From Clostridia bacterium (lineage in GTDB: Bacteria > Bacillota > Clostridia > Christensenellales > CAG-138): a DNA stretch of 64,000 nt. The DNA lies in the NCBI GenBank assembly GCA_017395105.1, contig JAFPWD010000002.1:38336-102335 (forward strand), given 5' to 3'. The stretch's first letter is position 1, and each line of letters begins with the position of its first letter. The notes beneath the pieces are model-generated. The model saw only the letters and a list, made by a program, of their open reading frames with translations, did no database searches and was not told where the DNA came from. Below, in pieces: positions 2,061 through 63,982 of the stretch. The translations under genes were made by a program, and so were the position numbers.

Positions 2061-2617
2061 ATAAATATGGTAGCATCGGAGTCGTAATATATATGATCCT
2101 CCGATGCAAAAACCCCAATATATTTTTTGGAATAATTGTGTTCTGGATAGTGAGGTGTTGTAAAAAGAACAAGTATCAAAACCGCCGCAGTAATGGCGTT
2201 TGGCTTCGCGTATATACCGAAATCGGTAATACCGCGCATTGCCGTTCTGCACCGCTGCCTGTATCAAGAGCCCCGTTTATAAAGCTCTATCGGCAGTGCA
2301 GCATGGTGAATACAACGGCATTTCACCCTCGCGTGATCGGCGTCATTTCGGTTAGCGTTCGGCGATGAGCGCTTTGACGTCGACAACAGTCACTCGCATC
2401 CTGAAAACAGGGTATAAAAGCTCTCGATATACGGTATCCGAGAGTTGAATCGATACCCGTGCCGGCAAGTGTCATCGCAGCGCGCGCACTCGGATCGCAG
2501 GAACAAGAACCTCGCTTATTCCTTATCATGATCCGAGGAGATGAATCGACTTGGTTTATGCACTCGCCTGGCAGCAGACGTTTTTTGTGCACACAAGCAA
2601 TATGGAGGTCGTTTATT

Positions 2618-8800: not shown

Positions 8801-8850
8801 CCGCGTTACCCATCGGAAACCTAAGCGTTCCCGATCAACATTAGCCAATC

Positions 8851-8876
8851 CCCGGAGCTTTTCAAAAAGCTCCGGG
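8851..8876 (+). other. strong intergenic hairpin between the two giant genes (no U-tract)
   Basis: cccggagcttt / aaagctccggg form an 11-bp perfect stem. The hairpin is followed by tggtataaaaaacc, not a T-run. Confidence 0.4.
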
Positions 8877-8948
8877 ATGGTATAAAAAACCTCGCTTCCC
8901 CAGCATCATGGGTATGATGCAAAAAAAAACGCAAAGGAGATACCTCAC

Positions 8949-11900
8949 ATGAAGCACTCGTTTAAAAAAATTGTGTCGCTGCTTATCGCGGCGATCATGG
9001 TCTTCGGCGTATTGCCGTTGTCCGCTCTCGGCGCCTCCGAAGGAGTGATCGAGATTCCCGTTGAGGAAGTTATAACTTCTGATACAGTCAATGAAGCTTC
9101 CTTCGACAGCGCAATGAGCACTGACGGAAGAACCTTCGGCCACGTACACACCGAACGAACCGGCGGACATGCTCTCACCGAAGCCTATCTGAAGGGCGAA
9201 CTTGAAGACACCCGCGATCCCCTCCCCGCAAAGTACGACAGCCGCGATTACGGCTACATTTCCTCCGTTAAGAACCAGAACCCCTACGGAACCTGCTGGG
9301 CGCACGCTTCCGTTGCCGCTGTTGAGGCATACATGGTCAAGCACGGCATCATCAACGCTCAGACCGGCGCTGCCGCAACCACCAGCATGAACCTTTCCGA
9401 GTATCATCTTGCATGGTTCAACTACACCAGCGCTTATGACAAGCTCGGAATGCTCACCGGCGATAAGACCACACCTTCCTCCAGCTACCTTAACCTCGGC
9501 GGAACGGCGTATCATTCCACCTATACCTTCCTGCGCGGCACCGGCCCCGCTGCCGAAAGCACCTCTGCGCTTGCTTACAGCGCGGCTTCCTCCTCCGGTC
9601 TCAACTCGCAGTACGCATACAACTACAACGTTGCCCGCGTTACCGACGTTGTGTGGATCCCCACCTCCAACAAGGATGCGGTCAAGAGAGCCATTATGGA
9701 ATACGGCGCGGGCTACATTGCCTACTACCATTCCGACAGCTACGTATCCAGTGCCGGCGGCTATTGCTACAAGGGCAACCAGTATGCTAACCACGCCGTT
9801 ACCGTTGTTGGCTGGGACGACAACTACGCAACCAGCAACTTCAATTCCAGCGCAAGACCCAGCTCTCCCGGCGCATGGATCATCAAAAACTCCTGGGGCT
9901 CCAGCTGGGGCAGAAGCGGCTACTTCTACCTCTCCTATGAGGACGTTCCCTCCCGCAACGAAGACTGCGCGTTCTACAAGGCTGTAAACTCCGATGTTTA
10001 CACCAACTGCTATCAGTACGACGGCACCACCAACGACACCAGCAGCAGGACGCTTGGCAACAATGCTTCCGTAGCAAACATCTTCACCGCAAAGGCCAGC
10101 GAGACCATCACCGCGGTTGCGTTTGCTCCCGGCGATGAGGGCACCAGCTACACCATCAAGGTTTACAAGAACCTCTCAAGCTCCACCAACCCCACCTCGG
10201 GTACCCTGATGTCCACCAAGACCGGCTCCGTGGACTTCCCCGGTTATCACACCGCCGTTCTCGACACCCCCGTTTCGATCAGCAATGGCGAAACCTTCTC
10301 CGTAGTGGTCACCCTCAGTGTCCGCTCCGGCTCCGTCCACATGCCCTACGATGCTTCTGCAAATTACTCTTGGGTTACCTGGACTCATAAGAACAACGGC
10401 AACACCTCCTACTACAAGGAATCAAGCAGCAGCTCATGGACCGATTGCCCCAGCAACGGTGACTTCCGTATCAAGGCTTTCACCGGCGTTGCTCAGGCTT
10501 CATACAGCGTAAACGCTCAGGTAAACAACAGCTCCTACGGTTACGTTCAGGTAAGCGGCAACACCATCACCGCCAATCCGTACAGCGGCTACTATCTTGC
10601 TGATGCATACATCGTTTCCGGCGACGGCACTCTGAATGTCAGCGGCAACACCATCACCGTAGCTCCCTCCTCCGATTGCACCGTAATGGTAGTTTTTGCT
10701 CCGAGGCAGCTCGTTACGATCAACCTCTACGCCTGCGGTATGCCCGAGAGCTACATCAACGCATACAGCGGTGATACCGTCCAGCTTCCCGATGGCGTAA
10801 GCTTCATTCCCGACGGTTGGAACTTCATCGGCTGGTGCGAGACCACGATCAATGACAGCGGCGAAGATGACGATATCAAATCCGCTCCCAACTACTATCG
10901 CCCCGGCAGCTCCTACGTTGTCGGCAACTCCTACGCGCTCTATGCACTTTACTCCATGGTTGAAGGCGGCGGCACCGGTGAAACCGTTTACCAGCTTGTA
11001 GCCGGCAGCAGCGACGAACGCGGCGAATACGACGGCCGCTACGTCATCACCTCCGGCGCGGACAGCAACCTCACCGTGCTCAAGTCTCCCGGAACCACGG
11101 TTTCGCTCGAGAGCGCAAGCGCTGGCGGCGCCATCCCCTATGCAAGCACCGGCATGCAGCTTGACGGCAATATGCTCCGCAATGTTTCCGATGAGTACGT
11201 ATTCGACATTACGAGCACCGGCTCAACCTACACCATCATCAATGAAGCGACCGGTTGCTACATCGGTGCATACACGGACACCCTTTGGAATCTCGATTCG
11301 GATTACAGCGCTTCCCAGTGGATCAACTGGAATATCGAATACGATAGTGCTTATGGCTGCATGAAGCTTGAGAACAATGTTGGCGGCGAATCGTATCCCT
11401 ACCTCGTGTTGGGCAACAATTCGTACTTCATCATGAGCAACACCTACACCAACAACAAGACCTATCTGTGGAAGGAGACCGGCGCAGGAACGATCAGCTA
11501 CAGCACCAACCCCTACGGTCCCATCGTGCCCGATCCCACTCCCGAACCCACCCCCGTACCCACTGCAGTTCCCACCGCGGTACCCACTGCTGTTCCCACC
11601 GCAGTTCCCACCGCAGTTCCCACCGCGGCTCCCACTGCGGCTCCCACTCAGACTCCCACGGCTCCTTCCGCTCCCACCGGCGTTACCGCAGGTCTTGTAG
11701 ACCGCAAGCCCTACATTGCATGGAATGCTTCTGCCAATGCGATGACCTATCAGATCTATCGCAGCGCTAAGAAGACCTCCGGCTTCAAGCTTGTCAGCAC
11801 CGTGTACGACACCTCGTTTGTAGACACCGCTCAGCTCACCGGCTTTAAGACCTATTACTACAAGGTAAAGGCTGTGGATGAGTTCGCAAGAGAAAGCGCC

Positions 11901-13025
11901 TTCAGCGCAGTGGTCAACGTAACAACGTTTGGCCTTAACGCTCCGATAAGCATAAGCACATACCTTATCGATAATATGCCCACCATTGAGTGGTCCGCTT
12001 CCGATAATGCGACGAACTATCAGGTTTATCGCAGTAAGTCGATTTCCAGCGGATATACGCTCATCGGAACGGTGTATGATACTTGCTTCACCGATTGCGA
12101 TACGCTGACCCCTCTTACGACTTATTACTACAAGGTTCGCGCACTTGACGATTTCGGCACCATCAGCGCATACAGCGATGCCACAAGCGTGCTTTCGTAC
12201 GGCGTAGCAACTCCCTTGAACATCACCGCAGATCTTGTTGACCGCCTCCCCGCGATAACCTGGAGTCCCGCCAGCAACGCAACGAACTATCAGGTTTATC
12301 GCAGCGCGAAGCAGACCAGTGGCTACATGCTTATTGCAACGGTATACGATACCTCCTTTGTGGACACCGAGTCGCTTACCGGCAACAAGAAGTATTACTA
12401 CAAGGTCCGCGCGGTTGATGATTATGGTGTAGTCAGCTCGTTCAGCGACATAGTAAGCGTTGTAACGTTTGCTCTGCTTCGCCCGGAAAATGTGAATGCG
12501 ACCCTCTCCGACCGTAAGCCCACGATCTCATGGAATCCTTCGCAGTATGCTTCGGGCTATGAGGTTTACCGCAGCACCAAGTCCTCAAGCGGCTTCAAGC
12601 TTGTCGGTCTTGTGGAAGACACGGTCTTTGTCGATAATGCGGCGCTCACCGGCCTCAAGAAGTATTACTACAAGGTTCGCGCGATCGACGAATACAATAA
12701 CACCAGCTCGTTCAGCCCCGTTGTTTCCGTAGAAACTTATGGAATTGGCAATACGACTGGTGTTAACGCAGGTGTCTTTGATGGTATTCCCCATATTTCA
12801 TGGAACGAAGCCACGAATGCCGTTGGTTATCAGATCTACCGCAGCACCAAGAGCGCAAGCGGCTACAAACTTATCGGCACCGTATACGACACTTCCTTCA
12901 CCGACCTTGCACTCCTGAGCGAAGGCAAGACCTACTACTACAAGGTCCGCGCGTTTGACGAATTCGGAACGAACGGAGCTTGGAGCTCGGTAGTTTCGGT
13001 ACGGATCGAAAGCGATATCAAATGA
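8949..13025 (+). CDS. secreted papain-like (C1 family) cysteine peptidase with accessory beta-domains, PT linker and 5 Fn3-like repeats
   Basis: Signal peptide MKHSFKKIVSLLIAAIMVFGVLPLSALGA. NQNPYGTCWAHAS carries the Cys codon at 9294-9296. YANHAVTVVGWDD carries the His codon at 9792-9794. WIIKNSWGSSWGRSGYFYLSYED is present. A Listeria-Bacteroides-type repeat (GWNFIGW...LYALYS), a (A/V)PT linker at ~11521-11665 and 5 YQIYRSxK...YYYKVRA modules follow. Confidence 0.85.
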   Translation: MKHSFKKIVSLLIAAIMVFGVLPLSALGASEGVIEIPVEEVITSDTVNEASFDSAMSTDGRTFGHVHTERTGGHALTEAYLKGELEDTRDPLPAKYDSRDYGYISSVKNQNPYGTCWAHASVAAVEAYMVKHGIINAQTGAAATTSMNLSEYHLAWFNYTSAYDKLGMLTGDKTTPSSSYLNLGGTAYHSTYTFLRGTGPAAESTSALAYSAASSSGLNSQYAYNYNVARVTDVVWIPTSNKDAVKRAIMEYGAGYIAYYHSDSYVSSAGGYCYKGNQYANHAVTVVGWDDNYATSNFNSSARPSSPGAWIIKNSWGSSWGRSGYFYLSYEDVPSRNEDCAFYKAVNSDVYTNCYQYDGTTNDTSSRTLGNNASVANIFTAKASETITAVAFAPGDEGTSYTIKVYKNLSSSTNPTSGTLMSTKTGSVDFPGYHTAVLDTPVSISNGETFSVVVTLSVRSGSVHMPYDASANYSWVTWTHKNNGNTSYYKESSSSSWTDCPSNGDFRIKAFTGVAQASYSVNAQVNNSSYGYVQVSGNTITANPYSGYYLADAYIVSGDGTLNVSGNTITVAPSSDCTVMVVFAPRQLVTINLYACGMPESYINAYSGDTVQLPDGVSFIPDGWNFIGWCETTINDSGEDDDIKSAPNYYRPGSSYVVGNSYALYALYSMVEGGGTGETVYQLVAGSSDERGEYDGRYVITSGADSNLTVLKSPGTTVSLESASAGGAIPYASTGMQLDGNMLRNVSDEYVFDITSTGSTYTIINEATGCYIGAYTDTLWNLDSDYSASQWINWNIEYDSAYGCMKLENNVGGESYPYLVLGNNSYFIMSNTYTNNKTYLWKETGAGTISYSTNPYGPIVPDPTPEPTPVPTAVPTAVPTAVPTAVPTAVPTAAPTAAPTQTPTAPSAPTGVTAGLVDRKPYIAWNASANAMTYQIYRSAKKTSGFKLVSTVYDTSFVDTAQLTGFKTYYYKVKAVDEFARESAFSAVVNVTTFGLNAPISISTYLIDNMPTIEWSASDNATNYQVYRSKSISSGYTLIGTVYDTCFTDCDTLTPLTTYYYKVRALDDFGTISAYSDATSVLSYGVATPLNITADLVDRLPAITWSPASNATNYQVYRSAKQTSGYMLIATVYDTSFVDTESLTGNKKYYYKVRAVDDYGVVSSFSDIVSVVTFALLRPENVNATLSDRKPTISWNPSQYASGYEVYRSTKSSSGFKLVGLVEDTVFVDNAALTGLKKYYYKVRAIDEYNNTSSFSPVVSVETYGIGNTTGVNAGVFDGIPHISWNEATNAVGYQIYRSTKSASGYKLIGTVYDTSFTDLALLSEGKTYYYKVRAFDEFGTNGAWSSVVSVRIESDIK

Positions 13026-13431: not shown

Positions 13432-14571
13432 TTAAACGAGCGATAGGTACTTGCAAAGCCTGTCGTTCACCGTTTCACGCACCATTTCCGCAATTCCCCT
13501 TGCGCGCGATTCCTTTATTCCGGCCTTCTTTGCAACGGCAAGGATATCCTTCGTTGTGGGGTTTCGACCTTCTCCTGCAACTGTCGTTGCGTGTTCGCCT
13601 CCGATTGAGTTTGAGTATGTAAGATCGTAAGCCGGGGAAAGCCGCCAATTTCCTTTATGGTAAAGAAAACTGAAATTATTGGAATGATCGTCCCTGTTGT
13701 GTGCAAACACATTGAAGCACATCAGTGTAAACAGCTTCTCAAGCTCGGCGGCTTCCCTTGTAAGCTGCCAAGTGAGCGCCATGAGCGAGGTGTAATCAAG
13801 CGAAGGAATACGGTGCGAAACCTCGAGCAGAGCCGAGGCGGATGCCATGTGGAGCTTACGCACATCGGTTCCGTCATTCACCCTGTCAAAGCGCTTGCTG
13901 CCGAAATAGCCGGCGCATTTTGAAGAGGGAAACAGCTTTACATCGGGCACGTCGATCCCGCAGGCTTTGGCGCACAGGTTGTATTCGTATTCCATGAGCC
14001 CAATATCGTCCGGGTCGGCGGATGAGGGGAATTTGATTATCCAGTCGCCGTCATCGAGCGTGAGCATTACCTTCGGTCGAGCACCACCTGATGAGCCGCC
14101 AAGCGCGAAAAGCGTGTCCAGATCGTCTGATTCTTCAGAACGCAAAATCTTTTTGCATTCATCGGCAAGCCGATCCAGATCGTTGATCTCATCGGGTGCT
14201 TTCAAATCGTAAACAGGCTTGTATTCAAGTGCTCCCATGCCTGATTTACCGACAATGGAAAGCCTAAACAGGGGATCGGTCTTCGAAGGGTCGATTCCTT
14301 GCTTTCGGAGCATTCGGTCAACGAGCAGTCTGCCCCAACCATCGGGAAGGGAATCGAAAAAGATACCGAACAAGCCATTGAACGGATCGGGCTTTGCTAT
14401 TTTCACGCCATCCTCAAGCGGAAGCGAGAAGGGGCTTATGGAGAAGCCGTCATGAAGCCACTCGCGGGAGTATTCAAAGGCAGTCATGTATCTTTTGTAC
14501 GGAGCCATAGAACCTACATGACGACCCGAATAGTAAACTTGCAATCTTTCGACACTATTTACGGTTTCCAC
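13432..14571 (-). CDS. hipA: HipA-family serine/threonine kinase toxin (type II TA)
   Basis: GGSSGGARPKV motif and NRDDHSNNFSF catalytic-loop motif. It overlaps the upstream HTH gene by 17 nt. Confidence 0.85.
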   Translation of the reverse strand: METVNSVERLQVYYSGRHVGSMAPYKRYMTAFEYSREWLHDGFSISPFSLPLEDGVKIAKPDPFNGLFGIFFDSLPDGWGRLLVDRMLRKQGIDPSKTDPLFRLSIVGKSGMGALEYKPVYDLKAPDEINDLDRLADECKKILRSEESDDLDTLFALGGSSGGARPKVMLTLDDGDWIIKFPSSADPDDIGLMEYEYNLCAKACGIDVPDVKLFPSSKCAGYFGSKRFDRVNDGTDVRKLHMASASALLEVSHRIPSLDYTSLMALTWQLTREAAELEKLFTLMCFNVFAHNRDDHSNNFSFLYHKGNWRLSPAYDLTYSNSIGGEHATTVAGEGRNPTTKDILAVAKKAGIKESRARGIAEMVRETVNDRLCKYLSLV

Positions 14572-22525: not shown

Positions 22526-23236
22526 TCAGCCCGCTTTTACCATTGACAGAAGCTGATCGAGTTTGTAAACGTGATAACGATTCTGCATCGTATCGACGTT
22601 TTCCCAAATGCTGTCCGAACGGATAAGCTCATCAACGGCTTTTTTCAAAAACGTTTCGTCTTGTGCAAAATTGCGTACGGAGCTCGGCATGGTCTCAAGT
22701 AGCGCATAGTTGCGGGGAAAAGCGTATTTTTCGCCGTCTATGGCAATAACGTCAAAAGTTGTTATATGAGCACAGGTTATAATATATGAGTCGTCCGGAA
22801 GATTATTGCGTTCTCTGCCTTCATCGGAAAGCTTGTTAAGAAAAAGCAACAGCTCGTTGCCCGCCGTGAACAGCGGATGACCTTCAAGGGTAAATCTGCT
22901 TGAGCCATCCTGAATAAGCGTGAACTTTGAGGGAAGGTTGCCTTTTGCGGTTTCAATGACTTCGGCGCTAAAAAGGGTGCTGTACATATCATCGGTATAG
23001 CCAAGCCAATCACCGATACGTATGTAAGCAATCGCATCGGATTCCTCTACGGCATCGGCTACTGAAGCAGGAGCATACCCAAAACTTGCATGAGAAGGAT
23101 ACTCCGTCATACGAACAGGAGGCACAACGACTTGCTTTTTGCTGCCTGTGCATGAGGCAAGAAGCAGCCCTAAGAGCATGCTCGCCATCAGCACGGCGGC
23201 GGTGAAAAAACGGGGGAACGAAGTTCTTTTTTTCAT
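22526..23236 (-). CDS. lipoprotein of unknown family, paralog 2
   Basis: MKKRTSFPRFFTAAVLMASMLLGLLLASC lipobox. It is clearly paralogous to its neighbours (IRIGDWLG..., PLFTAGNELLLFL...). Confidence 0.7.
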   Translation of the reverse strand: MKKRTSFPRFFTAAVLMASMLLGLLLASCTGSKKQVVVPPVRMTEYPSHASFGYAPASVADAVEESDAIAYIRIGDWLGYTDDMYSTLFSAEVIETAKGNLPSKFTLIQDGSSRFTLEGHPLFTAGNELLLFLNKLSDEGRERNNLPDDSYIITCAHITTFDVIAIDGEKYAFPRNYALLETMPSSVRNFAQDETFLKKAVDELIRSDSIWENVDTMQNRYHVYKLDQLLSMVKAG

Positions 23237-23294
23237 TGCTCATAAATCCTTTCCAAAGCTTTTAACTTTCATAGGTTTGCTCCTCAGTCGGCGT

Positions 23295-23999
23295 TCAGCC
23301 CGCTTTTACCATTGAAACAAGCTCATCGAGCTTATACACGTGCGCATACGCTATATTGACTTTGCTCAAAACGCTGTCGGAGCGCTTAAGCTCATCTACG
23401 GCTCTTTTCAAAAAGGCTTCATCCTTTGCAAGATTCTTCACGGACTCCGGCATATTCTCAAGCAGCGCATAGTCTCGCGGGATAACGTATTTTTCGCCGT
23501 CAAGCTCGATCAGATGCATAACGCTGGTGTAGGTGCCGGTTATCTTATAAGTGTTCTCCGGGAATTTTAAGAATTCTCTGTTCTCATCCGATATCTTGGT
23601 CAGGAACAGAAACAGCTCGTTGCCGTATGTAAACAGAGGGTAGTCCCTGTAAGTAAACTCGCTCGAGCCACCCTGAAGGAGCGTGAATTTTGCGGGAAGC
23701 TCGCCCTTTATCGTCTCAATGACTTCGGCATTGAAAAGTGTAGTCAGCTTATCGGTCGTTTCACCGAGCCAATCGCCAACGCGAACCATGGCGACGGCAT
23801 CGGATCGCTCGATTGCCTCCTGTACCGTGCCGGGAACGTTTCCAAGGGAGCTGTCGGCCGGATACTCGGCCATCCGCATTGGCGGCACAACGGGCTCCTT
23901 TTTATTTCCCGCGCAGGAAACAAGCAGCGCACCCGCGAGTATGCTAAGTATCATAGCGGCGGCGGTGAAAAAACGGGGGAACGAGGTTCTTTTTTTCAT
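23295..23999 (-). CDS. lipoprotein of unknown family, paralog 3
   Basis: MKKRTSFPRFFTAAAMILSILAGALLVSC lipobox. Paralogous to 22526..23236. Confidence 0.7.
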   Translation of the reverse strand: MKKRTSFPRFFTAAAMILSILAGALLVSCAGNKKEPVVPPMRMAEYPADSSLGNVPGTVQEAIERSDAVAMVRVGDWLGETTDKLTTLFNAEVIETIKGELPAKFTLLQGGSSEFTYRDYPLFTYGNELFLFLTKISDENREFLKFPENTYKITGTYTSVMHLIELDGEKYVIPRDYALLENMPESVKNLAKDEAFLKRAVDELKRSDSVLSKVNIAYAHVYKLDELVSMVKAG

Positions 24000-25411: not shown

Positions 25412-27097
25412 TTACGGCGTATTATTGCCGCTATTCATGCCGCCCGCGCCCGTTGCCGCGGCAAGCGCCAGCTCAAGCGCCTTTGCCTTCATAAGCTGCA
25501 CGGCCTGATCCTTGCCGTCGAAGATAAGCAGCTGCAAGCCCACGTCCGGCGTTATCATCCCCGCCGAAACGAGGCGGAAAACGGTTTCGTTGTTGTTCAG
25601 CACCGAGAAGGCGTTTTCCTTTACCACCTTGACCGTTACCCGAAACTCGGCAGGCAGATTTTCAAGCCTGTCGAGGGCTTTTTCTATTGCGGAAAGCTTT
25701 GCGATATTCGCGGCTCTTTGATCCATGCCCATCTCGGAGCCTATCGCGGCGAGGCTCTTTTCGCAGCGCTCACGAAGCGTGAATTCGCGCTCGATCTCTA
25801 TCTCCTGACAGACCGCTTTTCTGAATGAGGAGTGGATATTCCTCGCCGCCATTCTCGAGCGCTTGCTCGAGGCTTCCTGCAGCGCGGCAATAGCCGTTCC
25901 GCTCGTTACGCCCGCATGGGTCATGCCGCGCGCAAATTCGTTTGCGCCCGATTCCTCCTTGATGGAGTTTCGCATCTCGGCGATGTAGTGCAGCATATAC
26001 GAGGGCAGGGGAGCGGTGGCAAACCACGAGATGCCGTTCAGGTTGTCGCCCTGATGCACCTCCTTCGACCAATCGCGCAGATCGGCGGGATCGAAGCCGC
26101 TTGCTCCAGTGATAAGAAGCTTGTTGTGGCTTGCAAGCAGCGCATTCTTCATCACGATCTGATCGAGCTTATCCGAATTGCGCTGGCTTGTTTCAAACAT
26201 ATCCACGAAGCCGTAGCCGAGGCAGCTTCCCTTGCGCTCAAACAGCTTTGTTATCACGAACGGATACTCGCCGTGCGAAAAATACCCATCGGGGCGCGTG
26301 TCGCGGCTGTCCTCAAGCATCATGCCGCCAGCAAGCAGCATCATGTGAACGGCGTACTTTTCGCGCTTTGCATCGTACACCCTGCGCCAGCATTCGATCA
26401 GAAGAATGGTCTTTTCGCAGTCTGCGGTCAGAAGCTGCTCCTCGGGCGTGTCGAACATGAAGCCGTCCTCGCGAAGCTCCGAAGCCTTGTCGGGGTAGTG
26501 CTGAGTGAACCAGTCGCGCGTGTGGTGGGTGAATTTGAAAACCGCCCTGCCGTCCTGAAGGTCGCTTGCAAGCGGATCGAACAGCACGCTTCGCGCATCC
26601 ACGTGGCGAATGTACGCGCCGCCCATGCCGCCGTTCGCGCTTTCGTCGAAGCCTATCTGCTGAACGCCGTAGCCGCCCACGAGCAGATCGTGAGTCATGT
26701 TCAGATACTCCTCGTCGTAGGCGCAGCGCAGATGGTTTTCGTGGATTATATGGGTGAATATCTCCGAAAGCGCATCGTATTCGGGAGCATCGGAGCTTAC
26801 TATCGCCTCGGGCAGATAGTCCACAAGGTCGGCGCGAACGTTCTCGATCGTGCTCTGAAGAACCGGCGTAACGGGGCGCGGCTCGCCCTTTTCGCCCATC
26901 GGCACATCGTACCAATGCTCGCCCCGATACATTCGTTCGCATTTATCGAGCCTTGCGCGTTCGCCCGCGTATGCGGTGTAGAATTCGTTGAAAAGCGCGT
27001 AAAGCGCCTCGGTCTCCTCGGCCTTGCCGCTCGACCGCGTGGGTTGCGCCACCGCTCCGTAAGCGGGGCTGAAGCTTTTGTTTGTTTCGTTTCTCAT
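25412..27097 (-). CDS. phage portal protein
   Basis: 561 aa, located 39 nt downstream of terL on the same strand. The size and general sequence character fit portal proteins. This call rests mainly on context. Confidence 0.65.
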   Translation of the reverse strand: MRNETNKSFSPAYGAVAQPTRSSGKAEETEALYALFNEFYTAYAGERARLDKCERMYRGEHWYDVPMGEKGEPRPVTPVLQSTIENVRADLVDYLPEAIVSSDAPEYDALSEIFTHIIHENHLRCAYDEEYLNMTHDLLVGGYGVQQIGFDESANGGMGGAYIRHVDARSVLFDPLASDLQDGRAVFKFTHHTRDWFTQHYPDKASELREDGFMFDTPEEQLLTADCEKTILLIECWRRVYDAKREKYAVHMMLLAGGMMLEDSRDTRPDGYFSHGEYPFVITKLFERKGSCLGYGFVDMFETSQRNSDKLDQIVMKNALLASHNKLLITGASGFDPADLRDWSKEVHQGDNLNGISWFATAPLPSYMLHYIAEMRNSIKEESGANEFARGMTHAGVTSGTAIAALQEASSKRSRMAARNIHSSFRKAVCQEIEIEREFTLRERCEKSLAAIGSEMGMDQRAANIAKLSAIEKALDRLENLPAEFRVTVKVVKENAFSVLNNNETVFRLVSAGMITPDVGLQLLIFDGKDQAVQLMKAKALELALAAATGAGGMNSGNNTP

Positions 27098-57205: not shown

Positions 57206-58819
57206 TCAGTTTGCCTCCCCGTTCTTTTCGCGCTTTGCGCCCGCCATGTAGAGGCCGAGCTCCTGCACGGTGGTGGTCTTGGGATCGGGCTGACCCACGA
57301 TCTCGCCCTCGTACATAACGAGTATGCGGTCGGAGAGGTTCATAACCTCATCGAGCTCAAGCGAGATCAGAAGCACTGCGTTGCCCGCATCCCTCTGCTC
57401 GATCAGCCTTCTGTGAACGCCCTCGATCGCGCCAACGTCGAGACCGCGCGCGGGCTGAACCGCAACGAGCAGCTTCGGCCGCTTGTCCACCTCGCGGGCG
57501 ATGATCGCCTTCTGCTGGTTGCCGCCGGACATGCTTCTCGTGGTGGTTATCGCGCCCTGACCGGATCTGACGTCGAACTGCTCGATAAGCCCGTCCGCAT
57601 ATTCGCGGATAGCCTTGGTTTTAAGGAAGCCCGCGCCGCTTGTGAAGCGCGGCTCGAAATAGGTTTGAAGAATGAAATTGTATTCAAGCGAATAGTCGAG
57701 CACGAGGCCGTGCTTATGCCTGTCCTCGGGGATATGGCTCATGCCGAGCTTGGAGCGCTTTCTTATAGGAAGATGGGTTATCTCGGAAAGCGGAATATCC
57801 TTTCCGTTTTTATCCTTGCCCGCCATAAAGAGCTTTCCGCTCTCAAGCGGCTCAAGCCCCGTGATGCCGTAAACAAGCTCGGTTTGGCCGTTGCCGTCGA
57901 TGCCCGCGATGCACACTATCTCGCCCGCGCGCACCTCGAAGCTTACGTTTTTGACCGCAAGCCCTTTATGCGATTTTGATGCGACCGAGATATTCTCCGC
58001 CTTGAACAGCACCTCGCCCGGAGTTGCTTCCTTTTTGGGAACAACGAATTCAACGTCCCTTCCCACCATCATTCGGGAGAGCTCCTCCTTCGTGATGCCC
58101 TTTATATCCACAGTGCCGATGTATTTGCCCTTTCTCAGAACCGTGCAGCGGTCGGCAACGGCAAGGATCTCGTTCAGCTTATGCGATATGAAGAGAATGC
58201 TCTTGCCCTCGGCGGCGAGATTGCGCATTATCTGCATCAATTCGTCGATCTCCTGCGGGGTGAGCACCGCCGTGGGCTCGTCGAATATAAGTATCTCGTT
58301 GTCACGGTAGAGCATCTTGAGGATCTCGGTGCGCTGCTGCATACCGACCGTTATATCGGCGATCTTCGCATCGGGATCGATCCTAAGGCCGTATCTTTCG
58401 CTGAGTGCGACCACCTTCTCGCGCGCCTCCTTCTTTTTAAGGAAGCCGGCCGTGTTCGGCTCAACGCCGAGAATGATGTTGTCGAGCACGGAGAAGATCT
58501 CAACCAGCTTGAAATGCTGATGCACCATGCCGATGCCGAGCGCGTTGGCATCGTTCGGATCGTTGATCTTGACCTCTTTACCGTCCTTTTTGATAACGCC
58601 CTCCTCGGGCTGATAAAGCCCGAAAAGCACACTCATAAGGGTGGATTTGCCCGCGCCGTTCTCGCCGAGAAGCGCGTGTATCTCGCCCTTTTTGAGGCGC
58701 AGCATTATGTTGTCGTTTGCAACGATGCCGGGAAAGCGCTTCGTGATGTTAAGCATCTCGATAGCGTATTCGCTTGCGTTCGTCTTTGCTTCGCTGCCTG
58801 AAGAAGTTTTGAGCTCCAA
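57206..58819 (-). CDS. ABC transporter ATP-binding protein (duplicated ATPase)
   Basis: GENGAGKST Walker A, MSGGNQQK signature, and two nucleotide-binding halves. Confidence 0.9.
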   Translation of the reverse strand: MELKTSSGSEAKTNASEYAIEMLNITKRFPGIVANDNIMLRLKKGEIHALLGENGAGKSTLMSVLFGLYQPEEGVIKKDGKEVKINDPNDANALGIGMVHQHFKLVEIFSVLDNIILGVEPNTAGFLKKKEAREKVVALSERYGLRIDPDAKIADITVGMQQRTEILKMLYRDNEILIFDEPTAVLTPQEIDELMQIMRNLAAEGKSILFISHKLNEILAVADRCTVLRKGKYIGTVDIKGITKEELSRMMVGRDVEFVVPKKEATPGEVLFKAENISVASKSHKGLAVKNVSFEVRAGEIVCIAGIDGNGQTELVYGITGLEPLESGKLFMAGKDKNGKDIPLSEITHLPIRKRSKLGMSHIPEDRHKHGLVLDYSLEYNFILQTYFEPRFTSGAGFLKTKAIREYADGLIEQFDVRSGQGAITTTRSMSGGNQQKAIIAREVDKRPKLLVAVQPARGLDVGAIEGVHRRLIEQRDAGNAVLLISLELDEVMNLSDRILVMYEGEIVGQPDPKTTTVQELGLYMAGAKREKNGEAN

Positions 58820-58969
58820 AAAAGATTACCCCCTGTTCTGTAGTTTGACCGATAATGCCAAAGCGGATGTTTGGAAGAATCATGACATATATTATTTTAC
58901 CATATTCACTGCGGCTAATCAACAGAATTTGCGGAATGAATCAAAAATAATGGGCAAGCATATAAAAAC

Positions 58970-58998
58970 TTGACAAGAATCACCGCATATAATACAAT
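58970..58998 (+). promoter_or_regulatory. promoter of the SLATT/ROCO-TIR island
   Basis: TTGACA (58970-58975), 17-nt spacer, TACAAT (58993-58998). A GGAGG RBS precedes ATG 59028. Confidence 0.55.
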
Positions 58999-59027
58999 AT
59001 TTTCAGAATAAATACGGAGGTAGACAC

Positions 59028-59612
59028 ATGAGTACAACCGATAAAAGCATGAGCACCGCGGCGGAACAGCCGGGCGAAGTGAAGCAGGAAGCCGCGAAGC
59101 AGGAAGCATCGAAGCAGGAATATAAAGGCAGGTATGCGGCGTTCATCAATGCAATGACGGACAAAACTGCGAAAAATTACCTTGTTGAACGTATCGTTCC
59201 GCAGATGGATTACTACAGCAAAAACAGCGCAAAAAATCGAAAGCTGTATTATAGGTTTGCGGTCATATCCATAATACTGAATGCCGTGATCCCGATAATC
59301 GTGCTTTTCGACCATTTTACCGCGATTCAGTTTTGGCTTAAGGTAGCTATTGCATCCGTCAGCGCTGCGGCCGGAGTGCTGACGGCGGTTTCCGTATTGA
59401 AAAACTATCGCGAGCTTTGGATCGAGTACAGGGTAACGCTTGAAAAGCTCAAATGCGCGTTGGACAGCTATTTTCTTAAATCGGGTGAGTTTTTCGGAAA
59501 GAGCGATGATGATGAATGCACTGCGCTCCTCGAAGCTGTTTGCAGCAGTATAATGGGCAATGAGCATGAGCTTTGGAGGCAGATGCATACCGCGGAAAAA
59601 AAGGAAAAATGA
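59028..59612 (+). CDS. DUF4231 / SLATT-domain two-TM protein
   Basis: YLVERIVPQMDYYSKNSAKNRKLYYRFAVISIILNAVIPIIVL...VAIASVSAAAGVLTAVSVLKNYRELWIEYRVTLEKLKCALDSYF matches the remembered DUF4231 pattern. That pattern is a helix, 2 TM segments, then Y.E.W..YR...E.L. Confidence 0.75.
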   Translation: MSTTDKSMSTAAEQPGEVKQEAAKQEASKQEYKGRYAAFINAMTDKTAKNYLVERIVPQMDYYSKNSAKNRKLYYRFAVISIILNAVIPIIVLFDHFTAIQFWLKVAIASVSAAAGVLTAVSVLKNYRELWIEYRVTLEKLKCALDSYFLKSGEFFGKSDDDECTALLEAVCSSIMGNEHELWRQMHTAEKKEK

Positions 59613-59667
59613 TTTGAAACGAATTCCTGCGTGAACTATCCGATTATGATACGGGGGGAGCAAAATT

Positions 59668-59835
59668 ATGCCGAAAAGTAAAGGGATTGAACTATTCGGG
59701 GGAATAGCCAAAAGGTTTTTGGCTGCGCTTGAGGAAGGTGACAGATTCGCCTGCCAAGTTGCCGGGGTTTCATCTTTGACTGAGATAATGAGTCTTGTCC
59801 TGCCGAGCGACTATGCATTCGAGCTTCCTGTCTGA
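59668..59835 (+). CDS. probable true N-terminal segment of the ROCO-TIR gene, separated by a 1-nt frameshift
   Basis: GGGGGGAG RBS 7 nt before ATG 59668. It encodes MPKSKGIELFGG...VSSLTEIMSLVLPSDYAFELPV*. Its last codons (ELP) match the SLP consensus of the downstream LRR units in this frame. cttcctGtctgag carries one extra nucleotide compared with cttccgtctgag at later repeat junctions. Confidence 0.55.
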   Translation: MPKSKGIELFGGIAKRFLAALEEGDRFACQVAGVSSLTEIMSLVLPSDYAFELPV

Positions 59836-62638
59836 GATAGGCGGGCTGAGCAATCTGCAGAGCTTGGATTTGAGTGGTACAAGCATATCTTCGCTTCCTG
59901 CTGAGATAGGCAGGCTGAGCAATCTGCAGATCTTGGATTTGAGTGGTACAAGCATATCTTCGCTTCCGTCTGAGATAGGCGGGCTGAGCAATCTGCAGCG
60001 CTTGGATTTGAGTGGTACAAGCATATCTTCGCTTCCTGCTGCGATAGGCAGGCTGAGCGATCTGTGGAGCTTGGATTTGAGTGATACAAGCATATCTTCG
60101 CTTCCTGCTGCGATAGGCAGGCTGAGCGATCTGTGGAGCTTGGATTTGAGTGATACAAGCATATCTTCGCTTCCTGCTGAGATAGGCGGGCTGAGTAATC
60201 TGCAGAGCTTGGATTTGAGTGGTACAAGCATATCTTCGCTTCCGGCTGAGATAGGCGGGCTGAGCAATCTGCGGAGCTTGTATTTGGGTGGGACAAGCAT
60301 ATCTTCGCTTCCGTCGGAGCTTGCCGATCTCAAGGCGTTGAAGCGCATCAATCTATCCCATATGATGCTTGATGAGATACCCGCTTGGCTTTTTGAAAAG
60401 GGACTGCCATTTGTTAAAGAAGTAATTTCCTTCGCTGATGAAGGTATCAACATTTTTGAAACAAAGCTTCGCAATCAGCCTATTGAAATATTCGAGCGAG
60501 ACAGGGAGTTTATTGCAGCGTATTATGCGAAGCAGGCGGCTGATTCAATCGAGCGCGAGGCGAAGGTGATCTTCCTCGGGTACGGAAACGCGGGGAAGAC
60601 ACATACCGTGGAGCGATTGCTGAATGAATGCAACGATATAAGCTTCGATCCGTCCCAAACGCAGGGCATAGTGATCAAGCCATGGCATCCAAAGCTTGAG
60701 GACGGCAGCATAAGGATCAATTTTTGGGATTTCGGCGGTCAGGAGATACTGCATTCGATGCACCGCTGTTTCCTGACGAACCGCAGCCTCTATGTTGTGG
60801 TTCTGCGCGACAGGCCGAACAGCCCCTATGATGATTTTACGAATCAGGCAAAGTATTGGCTTGAAAACATCAATAGCTTTGCGCCAAACAGCCCCGTGAT
60901 AATCGCCCTGAACCGAGAGAAAAACGGCTTTGGTTTAAACGGCATACGCAGGAAGCAGCTTAATGATCTTTTTGGCGGCATGATAGTGGATGTTGTTGAA
61001 TATTGCGCCAAGGAGGATGAACGCGATCACTTTTCGGATATTTATAATGCCATACTCAAGCAGGTCAAAGCGCTCGTCGGAACAGGGGCAAGGATACCGC
61101 CAAGCTGGATGCTCATAAGGCGGGAGCTTGAGAGCCTGAGTACCCGCGCCGCAAAAGGTGAAAAGCCCTATATTGATAAGAATGAGTATTATAGAATATG
61201 CGGAAGGCATGGGGTGAATGATCCGACTGAGATAAGCGAGCTTCTTCAATGGTTCATCGATCTTGGCGTGTGTTTCAGCTATCATAAGGAGAATGAAAAG
61301 GAGCTTGGGAATTATAAGGTGCTTAATCCCGAATGGCTTACAAACGCCGTTTACGCCATAATAGTAATCGCCGGCAATCCTGAGCATGATTTGAGCAGCG
61401 AGGGGATAATTACCAAAACCGAGATTGAAGAAATACTTAAGGATCCGGAAAAGTACAAGGAAAGCATGGTAAAGCCCATAAAATACAAAAAGTCCGAATG
61501 CGGCTATGTTACCGATGTTATGAAGCTTTTCCGCCTCTGCTATGCAAGAAATAAAAGGGAATTTTTCATTCCGGCGCTTTGCCCGGTCGAAAAACCCAAG
61601 GGCTTCGATCCCGATGCAAATGAATACTCAAACAAATTCAGCTTCTTGATGAAGTTCGGCTTCCTTCCAAACAGCGTTGTTCACCGCCTTATGATCGATT
61701 GCTGCGAAGGTAGTTTCGGAAGCACGAAGTTTTATTCAAACGGTATCCGAATCGATTTCAGCCATGAAGATATCGCGATAGTTGCGGATATGGGATTGAC
61801 GATGGATACTTTGAGCATCGACATTTACTATAAAAACGAGCATGCCGATATTCGATCAAAGCTTCGGTGGCTGAGAGCGCATATCAAAAAGATTTGCGAT
61901 GTAATGGGATTGCGCGCAGGCGAGGAGCTGATAAGGCTTAAGCAGAATGATAAAACGGCGGATATTCATATGCCGTCGCTGTATGAGCTGTTCTTGGAAA
62001 ATGTGAATGATTATCCATGTTCCGGCCGAAAGGGATTAATCAGATGTAATATTCCAAAGCTTATGAATGCGCTTTATACGGACGAGGAGATTGATAAGGC
62101 AAAAAAGGTATTGCGTGATGGAGCATACGGCATCGGAAGCTTTGCGGATGCGATGGCTTTGGTTCAGTCCGATGATTACAAACCGAGCGAGAGCTCCGAT
62201 AAGCGCTTCAGGCTTGCGTTTTCGGTTGCGGGCGAGCAGAGCGATCTTATCGAGGCAGTCTGCAAAAAGCTTGAGCAAAGCGGGTATTTGCGCAATGAGA
62301 TATTCTTTCATAGGTATAATCCCGAATATGCAAACGGGAGAGGGGGCGCGGACAAGCTTGCAAATATGTATAAAAATGAAGCGGAGCGCGTGATCGTTGT
62401 GCTATCGCAGGCATATTTGGCTAAGAAAATAACGAGAGATATCGAATGGGGCGCAATCAGCTCGAGGATCGAATCAAAGCGTGGCGGTGAGGTATGCTTG
62501 CTTAAATACGGCAGCTTCGAGTGGCCGGATTATCTCGGCATTAGCAGCAAAGACATTACTGAGAATATTACCGATATGGATGCGGAGAGTATAGCGAGTT
62601 TTATACTCAATTGGATCGCGGAATACGCTGAGAACTGA
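59795..62638 (+). CDS. LRR - Roc GTPase - COR - TIR-like multidomain protein (bacterial ROCO with C-terminal TIR)
   Basis: About 8 LRR units (LSNLQSLDLSGTSISSLPAEIGG). P-loop GYGNAGKT (~60578-60601) and WDFGGQE switch II (60725-60745). A COR-like region contains PSWMLIRRELE and YKVLNPEWLTNAVYAI. The C-terminus FRLAFSVAGEQ...VIVVLSQAYLAKKITRDIEWGAI is TIR-like (~62204-62635). The first in-frame ATG is 59813 and has no RBS. Confidence 0.75.
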   Translation: MSCRATMHSSFLSEIGGLSNLQSLDLSGTSISSLPAEIGRLSNLQILDLSGTSISSLPSEIGGLSNLQRLDLSGTSISSLPAAIGRLSDLWSLDLSDTSISSLPAAIGRLSDLWSLDLSDTSISSLPAEIGGLSNLQSLDLSGTSISSLPAEIGGLSNLRSLYLGGTSISSLPSELADLKALKRINLSHMMLDEIPAWLFEKGLPFVKEVISFADEGINIFETKLRNQPIEIFERDREFIAAYYAKQAADSIEREAKVIFLGYGNAGKTHTVERLLNECNDISFDPSQTQGIVIKPWHPKLEDGSIRINFWDFGGQEILHSMHRCFLTNRSLYVVVLRDRPNSPYDDFTNQAKYWLENINSFAPNSPVIIALNREKNGFGLNGIRRKQLNDLFGGMIVDVVEYCAKEDERDHFSDIYNAILKQVKALVGTGARIPPSWMLIRRELESLSTRAAKGEKPYIDKNEYYRICGRHGVNDPTEISELLQWFIDLGVCFSYHKENEKELGNYKVLNPEWLTNAVYAIIVIAGNPEHDLSSEGIITKTEIEEILKDPEKYKESMVKPIKYKKSECGYVTDVMKLFRLCYARNKREFFIPALCPVEKPKGFDPDANEYSNKFSFLMKFGFLPNSVVHRLMIDCCEGSFGSTKFYSNGIRIDFSHEDIAIVADMGLTMDTLSIDIYYKNEHADIRSKLRWLRAHIKKICDVMGLRAGEELIRLKQNDKTADIHMPSLYELFLENVNDYPCSGRKGLIRCNIPKLMNALYTDEEIDKAKKVLRDGAYGIGSFADAMALVQSDDYKPSESSDKRFRLAFSVAGEQSDLIEAVCKKLEQSGYLRNEIFFHRYNPEYANGRGGADKLANMYKNEAERVIVVLSQAYLAKKITRDIEWGAISSRIESKRGGEVCLLKYGSFEWPDYLGISSKDITENITDMDAESIASFILNWIAEYAEN
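59834..60316 (+). repeat. 7 tandem near-identical 69-bp units (coding LRRs); units 4 and 5 identical
   Basis: Unit boundaries lie at 59834, 59903, 59972, 60041, 60110, 60179 and 60248. An eighth, degenerate unit follows. Confidence 0.9.
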
Positions 62639-62785
62639 TCGGCTGCTTGATGCCTGCTGGAAGCAGAGACGGGAAAATTATTCCTTGCTTTTTTCCTTTA
62701 ATTGTTATATACTGATTTTATGGGCGCTTCGCCCGATACACTATCATTATTATTCCCCGCAAAGCGGGAAACGGAGGTCAAATAA

Positions 62786-63982
62786 ATGAGAGAAATCTAT
62801 GTAGTAAACTGCTGCCGTACTGCGATCGGCTCCTTCGGCGGCTCCCTCAAGGACGTTTCCGCCGCAAAGCTCGGCTCCATCGTTGTTAAAGAGGCTCTCA
62901 ACCGTGCGGGCGTTAAACCCGAAAATGTTGACGAAGTCATGTTCGGCTGCATCCTCACCGCGGGACTTGGTCAGAACGTTGCCCGTCAGGTCAGCCTCGG
63001 CGCGGGTCTGCCCGTTGAGGTTCCCGCATACACCGTCGGCATGGTCTGCGGCAGCGGCATGAAGTCCGTTATCGAGGGCGCTCGTGCGATCGCTTGCGGC
63101 GATGCGGAGATCGTTGTTGCGGGCGGCACCGAGAATATGTCCCAGGCTCCCTATGCTCTCCCCGCAGCTCGTTGGGGCGCGAGGATGGGCAACCACACCC
63201 TTGTGGACACCATGATTTCGGACGGCCTTTGGGATGTTTACAACAACTACCACATGGGCACCACCGCAGAGAACGTTTGCGATAAATGGGAGCTGACTCG
63301 TGAAGAGCTCGATGCGTTCGCGCTCGCTTCCCAGCTCAAGACCGAGATCGCGCAGAACAACAACCGCTTCGATGATGAGATCGTTCCCGTAACCATCAAG
63401 GTCAAGAAGCAGGACGTTGAGTTCAAGAAGGACGAGTTCCCCCGCGCAGGCTCCACCATCGAGGGTCTGCAGAAGCTTCGCGGCGCATTCGCCACCGCCG
63501 ATGGCGGCAAGGGCGAGCGCGTTACAGCGGGCAACGCTTCGGGCATCAACGACGGCGCTGCGGCGATCGTGCTTGCTTCCAAGGAAGCCGTTGAAAAGTA
63601 CGGCCTCAAGCCCATGGCGAAGCTCGTTAGCTGGGGTCAGGGCGGCGTAGATCCCGCGATCATGGGCGTTGGCCCCGTTCCCGCCACCCGTCAGGCGCTT
63701 GAAAAGGCGAATATGAAGATTCACGATATCGACCTCGTCGAAGCAAACGAAGCATTCGCGGCTCAGAGCTGCGCAGTTGCCAAGGATCTCGGCTTCGATA
63801 TGGAGAAGGTAAACGTCAACGGCGGCGCGATCTCCATCGGTCACCCCGTCGGCGCGAGCGGAGCCCGCATCATCGTTACCCTGCTGCACGAGATGCTCAA
63901 GCGCGACGAAGCCAAGCACGGCCTCGCTACCCTCTGCATCGGCGGCGGCATGGGCGTTGCAACCATCTTTGAAAAGTGCTGA
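62786..63982 (+). CDS. thlA: acetyl-CoA C-acetyltransferase (thiolase)
   Basis: [21 protein letters not shown]..., VCGSGMKSV (active Cys), [20 protein letters not shown] and CIGGGMG. Confidence 0.95.

Follow-up and report, generated by a model that had tools for sequence, protein, structure and literature searches.

A strain-variable two-gene island pairing a SLATT membrane protein with an LRR-Roc-COR-TIR protein in an uncultured Clostridia bacterium: a candidate Thoeris-like immune module

Here we analyse a two-gene island in a 64,000-nucleotide stretch of DNA (the window; NCBI GenBank assembly GCA_017395105.1, contig JAFPWD010000002.1, positions 38,336 to 102,335) from an uncultured Clostridia bacterium known from metagenome-assembled genomes. 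An earlier note on this DNA had described an A+T-richer insert between an ABC ATPase gene and a thiolase gene, with its own promoter and two co-oriented genes, the first encoding a two-transmembrane (two-TM) DUF4231/SLATT protein of 194 amino acids (aa) and the second, which carries a frameshift, a protein with leucine-rich repeats (LRRs), a Roc GTPase domain, a COR region and a C-terminal TIR domain; it proposed that the pair is an undescribed immune, NAD-signalling module. The description is borne out below in its base composition, promoter, both protein architectures (including the TIR similarity and a candidate catalytic Glu) and frameshift, while its expectations of novelty, of co-conservation and of a place among defence genes fare less evenly. 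The features of the locus, in window coordinates, are as follows.

~58928-62673, no strand: strain-variable insert (the island) of 3.75 kb between the ABC ATPase gene and the thiolase gene, delimited by the empty site of a close relative (L105) and by G+C content (GC)
58970-58998, + strand: sigma-70-like promoter, TTGACA-17 nt-TACAAT, inside the island, 11/12 matches
59028-59612, + strand: gene 1, SLATT_1/DUF4231 two-TM protein of 194 aa, from NCBIfam and Pfam matches; predicted membrane effector (ThsH-like)
59247-59402, + strand: two hydrophobic (TM) segments of gene 1, residues ~74-96 and ~102-125, Kyte-Doolittle
59668-59835, + strand: 5' fragment of gene 2, an open reading frame (ORF) of 55 aa with the true start codon and the LRR N-cap, ending at a stop made by the frameshift
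59795-62638, + strand: main frame of gene 2, LRR-Roc-COR-TIR, a mechanical ORF of 947 aa whose first ATG is at 59813
59823-60312, + strand: LRR array of 69-bp (23-aa) units, 7.1 copies, 92% match, from Tandem Repeats Finder (TRF)
59831, + strand: frameshift, a single extra T (CCTG-T-CTGAG) relative to intact alleles, from DNA alignment
60563-60916, + strand: Roc GTPase domain, residues 257-374, Pfam Roc 8.4e-20 and alignment to 4wnr and 3dpu
60578-60601, + strand: P-loop (G1), GYGNAGKT, read from the sequence
60728-60742, + strand: G3, DFGGQ, read from the sequence
60911-60922, + strand: G4 position, NREK in place of NKxD, from alignment to 4wnr and 3dpu
61097-61582, + strand: COR-A, residues 435-596, Pfam 1.3e-29
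61631-61993, + strand: COR-B (weak), residues 613-733, Pfam 0.096
62186-62635, + strand: TIR domain, residues 798-947, from TIR_2 family matches and the fold of an AlphaFold2 (AF2) model compared with Foldseek
62444-62446, + strand: codon of the candidate catalytic Glu884 (domain E87), from alignment

The island lies between two divergently oriented genes, that of the ABC ATPase (57206-58819, - strand) and that of the thiolase (62786-63982, + strand), and its GC of 0.42-0.50 stands out against 0.55-0.60 in the flanks on either side. A Joint Genome Institute (JGI) contig, L105, which was found via its identical thiolase protein, is 96% identical to the window in both flanks and, in the alignment, holds about 31 bp in place of window ~58928-62673, so that even very close relatives are polymorphic for the presence of this 3.75-kb island. 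It is this alignment that sets the left edge at ~58928, and thus not at the end of the ABC gene, where blastn alone had given 58849. The island holds neither an integrase nor a transposase, no target duplication was obvious at its edges, and scans of viral contigs with the SLATT and with the TIR returned no matches, so that a phage-borne origin is not supported. The TTGACA-17-TACAAT element is the best promoter-like site of the region, although the number of such sites is no higher than in shuffled sequences, which leaves the promoter plausible and not proven. Downstream of it, GGAGG stands 6 nt upstream of the gene 1 ATG, and a gap of 55 nt on the same strand separates gene 1 from the true ATG of gene 2 at 59668; the two genes, behind one promoter, thus have a tight operon layout and are predicted to be co-transcribed.

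Gene 1 matches the NCBIfam model NF033634 (SLATT_1) at 2.1e-30 and 105.4 bits (cut-off 41), Pfam DUF4231 at 3.6e-16 and 59.9 bits (cut-off 24.7) and Pfam SLATT_1 at 38.6 bits (cut-off 26.3), and on these profile scores it is a bona fide SLATT_1/DUF4231 protein. Its two hydrophobic segments were called from Kyte-Doolittle values in 19-residue windows at a threshold of 1.6. The ratio of nonsynonymous to synonymous substitution rates (dN/dS) of the SLATT is 0.13-0.17 across diverged lineages and 0.5-0.9 among close alleles; its N-terminus (59028-59130) is a KQE-rich, low-complexity stretch with an 11-aa indel among alleles (194 vs 183 aa). A SLATT_1 profile search returned 19 further relatives, and long contigs gave a genomic setting for two of these, P0323 and P0324 (32% identity to the window SLATT, profile E 1e-33 and 1e-31). 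Both of these lie within ThsB_TIR-SLATT_1-TPR-S-ThsB_TIR operons that adjoin Mrr/HEPN genes or an integrase, and PADLOC calls the genes flanking them as ThsB; with two of two placed relatives in ThsB operons, TIR proteins are the consistent partners of this SLATT lineage. A scan of JGI metagenomes with the SLATT alignment gave two tiny contigs, one with a truncated SLATT, and no ROCO gene was visible on them. On a JGI contig (L096, 1402-1746), only the C-terminal half of a related SLATT gene persists as a remnant downstream of an unrelated gene pair, with no LRR gene within the next 350 bp.

In gene 2, Pfam matches LRRs ahead of Roc, and COR follows directly after Roc, as in ROCO proteins, and residues 9-637 align with the C. 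tepidum Roco structure 6hlu at E 4.7e-56 in an alignment against Roco proteins of the PDB. At the G4 position, where 4wnr (M. barkeri) and 3dpu (C. tepidum) have NKID, the window protein has NREK, and N-x-E is found in nine of nine family members, so that guanine specificity is not assured and an altered nucleotide specificity is possible. Pfam returned no STAND, NACHT or AAA_16 match for gene 2, and PADLOC no Avs match. Among strains with an identical thiolase protein, gene 2 alleles encode 918, 947, 989, 1012 or 1033 aa; the LRR array therefore varies in unit number between strains, which could be genuine sensor diversification or, in part, an assembly collapse of repeats.

The C-terminus of gene 2 is recognised as a TIR domain at the level of its family and of its predicted fold. 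A direct sequence search of the PDB with the C-terminal 192 aa gave no match, and a family profile was needed; Pfam TIR_2 is matched by seven of seven family C-termini (best 8.4e-8). The AF2 model of the domain (predicted local distance difference test, pLDDT, 79) finds only TIR domains among its top 21 Foldseek matches in the PDB, with BtpA the best (5e-5) and PdTIR, AbTir 7uxu (query-based template-modelling score, TMq, 0.64), MyD88 and SARM1 among the others, and so supports a flavodoxin-like TIR fold. An exhaustive search with the TIR profile collected 4778 representative proteins at E <= 1e-3; among the best 148 of these, Tyr77, Trp82 and Glu87 are near-invariant (Glu87 in 144/148), and 62 of the 101 related representatives that were scanned match TIR_2 at 1e-4 or better. 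Proteins of this subfamily also carry Roc/COR, WD40, TPR, HD, Metallophos or AAA_16 domains, a diversity of partners that is the pattern of a promiscuous conflict-system domain.

The broader subfamily profile matches the NADase AbTIR (8g83, 4.6e-4), BtpA and the TIRs of plant RPS4 and Roq1, and a HMMER profile alignment places Glu884 on the Glu of 'WTNYE' in AbTIR, 'WPARE' in BtpA and 'WCVRE' in RPS4, the established catalytic Glu of these proteins. By this alignment, the TIR retains a candidate catalytic Glu at the start of helix alphaC. The spacing is W(x4)E in near relatives of the window TIR, through a one-residue insertion, and the canonical W(x3)E in remoter members of the subfamily. We considered whether this spacing makes Glu884 non-catalytic and rejected the idea, given the W(x3)E of the distant members and a HMMER alignment that matches the Glu across a one-residue gap. 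The TIRs that stand next to a SLATT gene are further set apart by derived substitutions, present in five of five (window, P0002, P0003, P0173 and P0185), at four or five near-invariant positions: Phe13 to Val, Asp42 to His or Tyr, Asp55 to Ala or Asn, Trp82 to Ile, Pro or Asn and, in some, Arg18 to Ser. Glu87 is kept in all five, and the consensus residues are kept in six of six sister sequences that have no SLATT. Because the derived state is shared and the Glu is kept, these changes point to a functional shift of the TIR rather than to random decay, a shift whose nature we can only infer.

The window copy of gene 2 is interrupted near its start. Intact orthologs (P0002, 989 aa, 92% identity; P0003, 918 aa, 86%) begin MPKSKGIELFGG..., which is the sequence of the 55-aa ORF in the window, and by DNA alignment the window shares the extra T at 59831 with L001 and L098, while L004, L006 and L101 lack it. 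A sequencing error and a programmed frameshift were both rejected, since the T is not in a homopolymer, a slippery motif is missing and independent assemblies share the allele; the frameshift is therefore a real allele. At least three length variants of it exist, all open over the other 2.8 kb of gene 2 with no second stop or frameshift, and sister strains hold intact alleles. The module is probably inactive in the window strain, or at best makes a protein that lacks the N-cap from the ATG at 59813, upstream of which there is no good ribosome-binding site. One otherwise intact allele (P0003, on L006) has a Gly-to-Asp change in the conserved xAGxQ motif of its TIR, with a TIR dN of 0.12 vs ~0.04 in its Roc-COR part and a TIR dN/dS of 0.75.

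The pairing itself is not confined to one site. Among close relatives that have the island, the SLATT/ROCO-TIR pair is at the same chromosomal site in all (L001, L004-L006, L093-L094 and L097-L101). With different flanks, it occurs in L008-L011 (SLATT 53% and ROCO-TIR 47% identity), and in L012, again with different flanks, an LRR protein that shares 51% identity with the L008 ROCO comes after a SLATT of 51% identity; the pairing thus recurs in three diverged lineages. On L008 (~3940-4051), the TIR frame switches after 'AISARLG' to MutS2-like sequence, as judged by eye; P0173 has an intact TIR of the L008 type, and the switch is either an assembly chimera or a TIR-truncating deletion. Co-conservation of the two genes, on which the earlier note had staked its reading, nevertheless stops short of the whole family, since a sister clade of ROCO-TIR proteins with the same TIR (P0004, P0005 and P0007-P0009; 40-44% identity) has no SLATT within 10 kb. 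The setting of its members is an integrase/Mob element on L002, the vicinity of a ThsA-type SIR2 gene on L003 and a stretch of ordinary genes on L007. The ThsA gene of L003 (4315-5715; SIR2-STALD, PADLOC ThsA 4.4e-76) is 4.3 kb upstream of the ROCO-TIR gene (P0005) in a 23-kb locus from which ThsB is absent, and would thus be an orphan Thoeris effector near a ROCO-TIR, observed at this single locus only. When GTDB species-representative contigs were scanned with the ROCO-TIR alignment, 80 other ROCO loci came up, and neither this TIR nor this SLATT is present in any of them.

Several known or predicted systems share parts of this arrangement, and the claim of an undescribed module stands only in part. 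Type VII Thoeris, which joins a ThsB TIR protein to the SLATT effector ThsH, has been verified against phage: on infection its TIR produces canonical cyclic ADP-ribose (cADPR), and the same molecule sets off toxicity (Yirmiya et al., bioRxiv 10.64898/2025.12.03.692087, December 2025 preprint). As in that system, the island is a two-gene operon of a TIR protein and a SLATT membrane protein, its TIR keeps the putative catalytic Glu, and its SLATT is related (32%) to SLATTs in ThsB_TIR operons. Unlike type VII Thoeris, it has its TIR as the C-terminal domain of an LRR-Roc-COR protein of 0.9-1.0 kaa and no small standalone ThsB; the TIR belongs to another subfamily, of the TIR_2 'SFAGEQR...EW' type, with no match to PF08937 (ThsB_TIR) in Pfam or to the ThsB models of PADLOC; and the SLATT gene comes first.

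The second building block has likewise been described. A computational study predicted a role in conflict for prokaryotic AP-GTPase (Roc)-COR proteins whose N-terminal LRRs evolve rapidly and whose C-terminal effector is one of at least 24 alternative domains, TIR included (Kaur, Iyer, Burroughs and Aravind, eLife 2021, PMC8195603). The exact LRR-Roc-COR-TIR architecture, the variable-copy LRRs and the predicted immune-switch logic agree with the window protein, whereas that work is computational, takes the C-terminal domain as the effector and, in the text available, mentions no adjacent SLATT gene for these proteins. Two cyanobacterial LRR-Roc-COR-TIR proteins from public genomes (P0026 and P0103) have a canonical 'FISYSH' TIR, unlike that of the window. 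A GTPase switch, a nucleotide-related effector and a separate two-TM SLATT gene also come together in the GAP1-type GTPase-centric ternary conflict systems, which combine TIR, PNPase or calcineurin effectors with a SLATT gene and in which SLATT genes appear specifically with nucleotide-related effectors (Kaur et al., eLife 2020, PMC7159879); those systems, unlike the window, use a GAP1 GTPase and several components, where the island has Roc-COR, an LRR sensor and two genes only.

Further likenesses are to proteins that resemble nucleotide-binding leucine-rich-repeat (NLR) receptors. Avs/STAND proteins similarly hold a repeat sensor, an NTPase switch and a TIR output in one polypeptide with abortive-infection logic; the window protein differs in having a Ras-like Roc GTPase and COR in place of a STAND ATPase, the order sensor-switch-effector with the TIR C-terminal, and a SLATT partner gene. 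In the Runella gasdermin system, too, a Roc-COR protein stands beside a gene for a separate membrane-pore cell-death effector, but there the gasdermin-activating protease is a Roc-COR-CHAT protein (bioRxiv 10.1101/2021.06.07.447441), and the output is a caspase-like protease that cleaves gasdermin and not a TIR thought to signal to a SLATT. C. tepidum Roco (6hlu, 3dpu) and M. barkeri Roco2 (4wnr) share the LRR-Roc-COR core, the P-loop and DxxGQ with the window protein, and differ in their canonical NKID at G4 and in having no TIR. In the literature we found no experimental link of Roco proteins to anti-phage defence and no description of a SLATT combined with LRR-Roc-COR-TIR; both building blocks had already been described, and only their combination appears to be new.

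The sequences show directly which domains the proteins have, that the Glu is conserved, that the genes are laid out as an operon, that strains differ in having the island, that the pairing recurs and that related SLATTs are partnered with ThsB. From this we propose that the two genes form an abortive-infection module directed against phage or other invaders, a Thoeris-like TIR-to-SLATT pair whose TIR is fused to its own sensor and switch. We hold this proposal at about even confidence; that a ligand is sensed, that GTP gates the response, which signal is made, that it activates the SLATT and that the outcome is defence are what we infer to complete it. An invader-derived ligand would be recognised by the hypervariable N-terminal LRR array, and its binding would alter both the nucleotide state and the dimerisation of the Roc-COR GTPase switch. 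The C-terminal TIRs would then assemble and, through Glu884, turn NAD+ into an ADP-ribose-derived signal, possibly a cADPR isomer, which the co-transcribed two-TM SLATT protein would bind, oligomerising and permeabilising the membrane so that phage replication is stopped. Of the readings considered here, an immune logic with a NAD-derived signal, as the earlier note had suggested, is the best supported.

A bolder version, which we regard as tentative and rather doubtful, is that the SLATT-linked ROCO-TIR clade would be the first GTPase-gated, sensor-fused TIR signal synthase, in which an LRRK2-type Roc-COR turns recognition by hypervariable LRRs into a NAD-derived messenger for the opening of a SLATT pore; the altered TIR pocket would then mark a change of product relative to a plain-NADase sister clade.

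A number of observations weigh against the proposed module. The pair is carried by only a handful of metagenomic contigs from uncultured Clostridia. Its neighbours are housekeeping genes rather than a defence island, a location among defence genes being one of the points that the earlier note had proposed to check. No model of PADLOC-DB 2023 matched either protein or the intact allele, so that PADLOC assigns the module to none of its catalogued systems; the earlier note had not recognised the pair as a named defence system either. The NREK of the Roc domain, which is not NKxD, leaves GTP specificity unproven. The window TIR taken alone scores below threshold with Pfam TIR_2 (6.6e-4, 20.6 bits; gathering score 28), six type VII ThsB TIR domains score <=2.8 bits against the window TIR profiles, and the subfamily-conserved Trp82, Asp42 and Asp55 are absent from the window TIR. 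In the window strain gene 2 is frameshifted (+1, after codon 54), and dN/dS of 0.45-0.87 among close alleles speaks for weak constraint. Finally, the sister clade does without a SLATT, and signal generation is therefore not a role that the TIR must have.

This last point leads to an explanation that we consider unlikely, if deserving of serious attention: the ROCO-TIR protein may be a self-contained, NLR/Avs-like sensor-effector that depletes NAD+, with the SLATT a parallel or accessory effector, or an independently acquired neighbour, and no receiver of a signal. The single-gene state of the sister clade, in a mobile-element context or beside a ThsA-type SIR2, would fit such autonomy, as would the fusion of the TIR subfamily to WD40, TPR, AAA_16 and Roc/COR modules, as effector TIRs are fused. 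The type VII Thoeris survey, moreover, took NTPase-fused TIRs for probable NAD+-depleting effectors and left them out (bioRxiv 10.64898/2025.12.03.692087). What an autonomous NADase accounts for less readily is that SLATT adjacency is kept over three lineages at about 50% identity in a tight operon layout, that the placed SLATT relatives (P0323, P0324) adjoin TIR genes, that SLATT-linked TIRs share derived changes near the active site, suggestive of co-adaptation, and that SLATT genes accompany nucleotide-related effectors specifically (PMC7159879).

The state of the window copy raises the question of whether anything still functions there. It is conceivable, at a fairly low probability, that the locus is a decaying remnant in this strain, with gene 2 inactivated and the SLATT a silent or harmless orphan of no present function: the extra T truncates the true ORF at 55 codons with no good ribosome-binding site for the downstream ATG, the frameshifted allele recurs in several assemblies (L001, L098 and L093/94), the close alleles have the high dN/dS given above, some strains are missing the island altogether, and P0003 combines its G-to-D change in the xAGxQ motif with a raised dN in the TIR. 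Yet the other 2.8 kb of gene 2 stay open in three length variants of the frameshifted allele and sister strains hold intact ones, and decay would in any case concern the present state of the window strain only, compatible with the proposed ancestral function. Very improbable, in our view, is a non-immune role, in which the LRR-ROCO-TIR protein would signal or act as a scaffold in the bacterium's own physiology or else, like BtpA/TcpB, be a TIR effector aimed at a host, with the SLATT a small membrane protein unrelated to it. To our knowledge no physiological role is established for bacterial Roco proteins, the best Foldseek match is the Brucella host-directed TIR protein BtpA, the flanking genes are metabolic, and NCBIfam LRR models of type III effectors and internalins match gene 2; these LRR matches, however, are generic repeat matches far below family cut-offs, and neither protein has a secretion signal or a secretion-system context. 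The hallmarks of a conflict system (presence/absence, low GC, variable LRR copies, a promiscuous TIR subfamily and TIR-partnered SLATT relatives) also argue against a non-immune role.

Elsewhere in the window, a HipA-family toxin kinase gene (13432-14571, - strand; HipA_C 1.3e-48) lies in a low-GC patch (12-16 kb, GC ~0.47-0.50), and a gene for a P22-like phage portal protein (25412-27097, - strand) adjoins a low-GC stretch (24-26 kb, GC 0.45); together with two Pfam-less ORFs at 22526-23999, the portal gene is probably a prophage or its remnant, ~32 kb from the island. Two giant ORFs on the + strand (2459-13025) encode presumably cell-surface proteins of 2113 aa, with fn3/Ig-like repeats, a redoxin domain and FMN_bind domains, and of 1358 aa, with fn3/Ig-like repeats, a papain-type peptidase domain and a lectin-like domain.

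Bacterial Roco proteins serve as structural models for human LRRK2, and we know of no established biological role for them in bacteria. With both building blocks already described, a family that is rare and seen in uncultured Clostridia metagenome assemblies only, and a window copy that is frameshifted, the interest of the island is bounded; it nevertheless offers, as a compact two-gene module, a direct genetic and biochemical handle on the function of a bacterial Roc-COR switch, with a built-in comparison between a SLATT-linked clade that has a remodelled TIR pocket and a SLATT-less sister clade that has a canonical one. If the proposed TIR-to-SLATT module is real, Thoeris-type signalling would extend to a sensor-fused TIR, blurring the line between the 'signalling' TIRs of ThsB and the 'effector' TIRs of NLR-like proteins; should the bolder version hold, a defined physiological function would also fall to bacterial Roco proteins, and a single module would unite NLR-like sensing with signalling of the Thoeris type.

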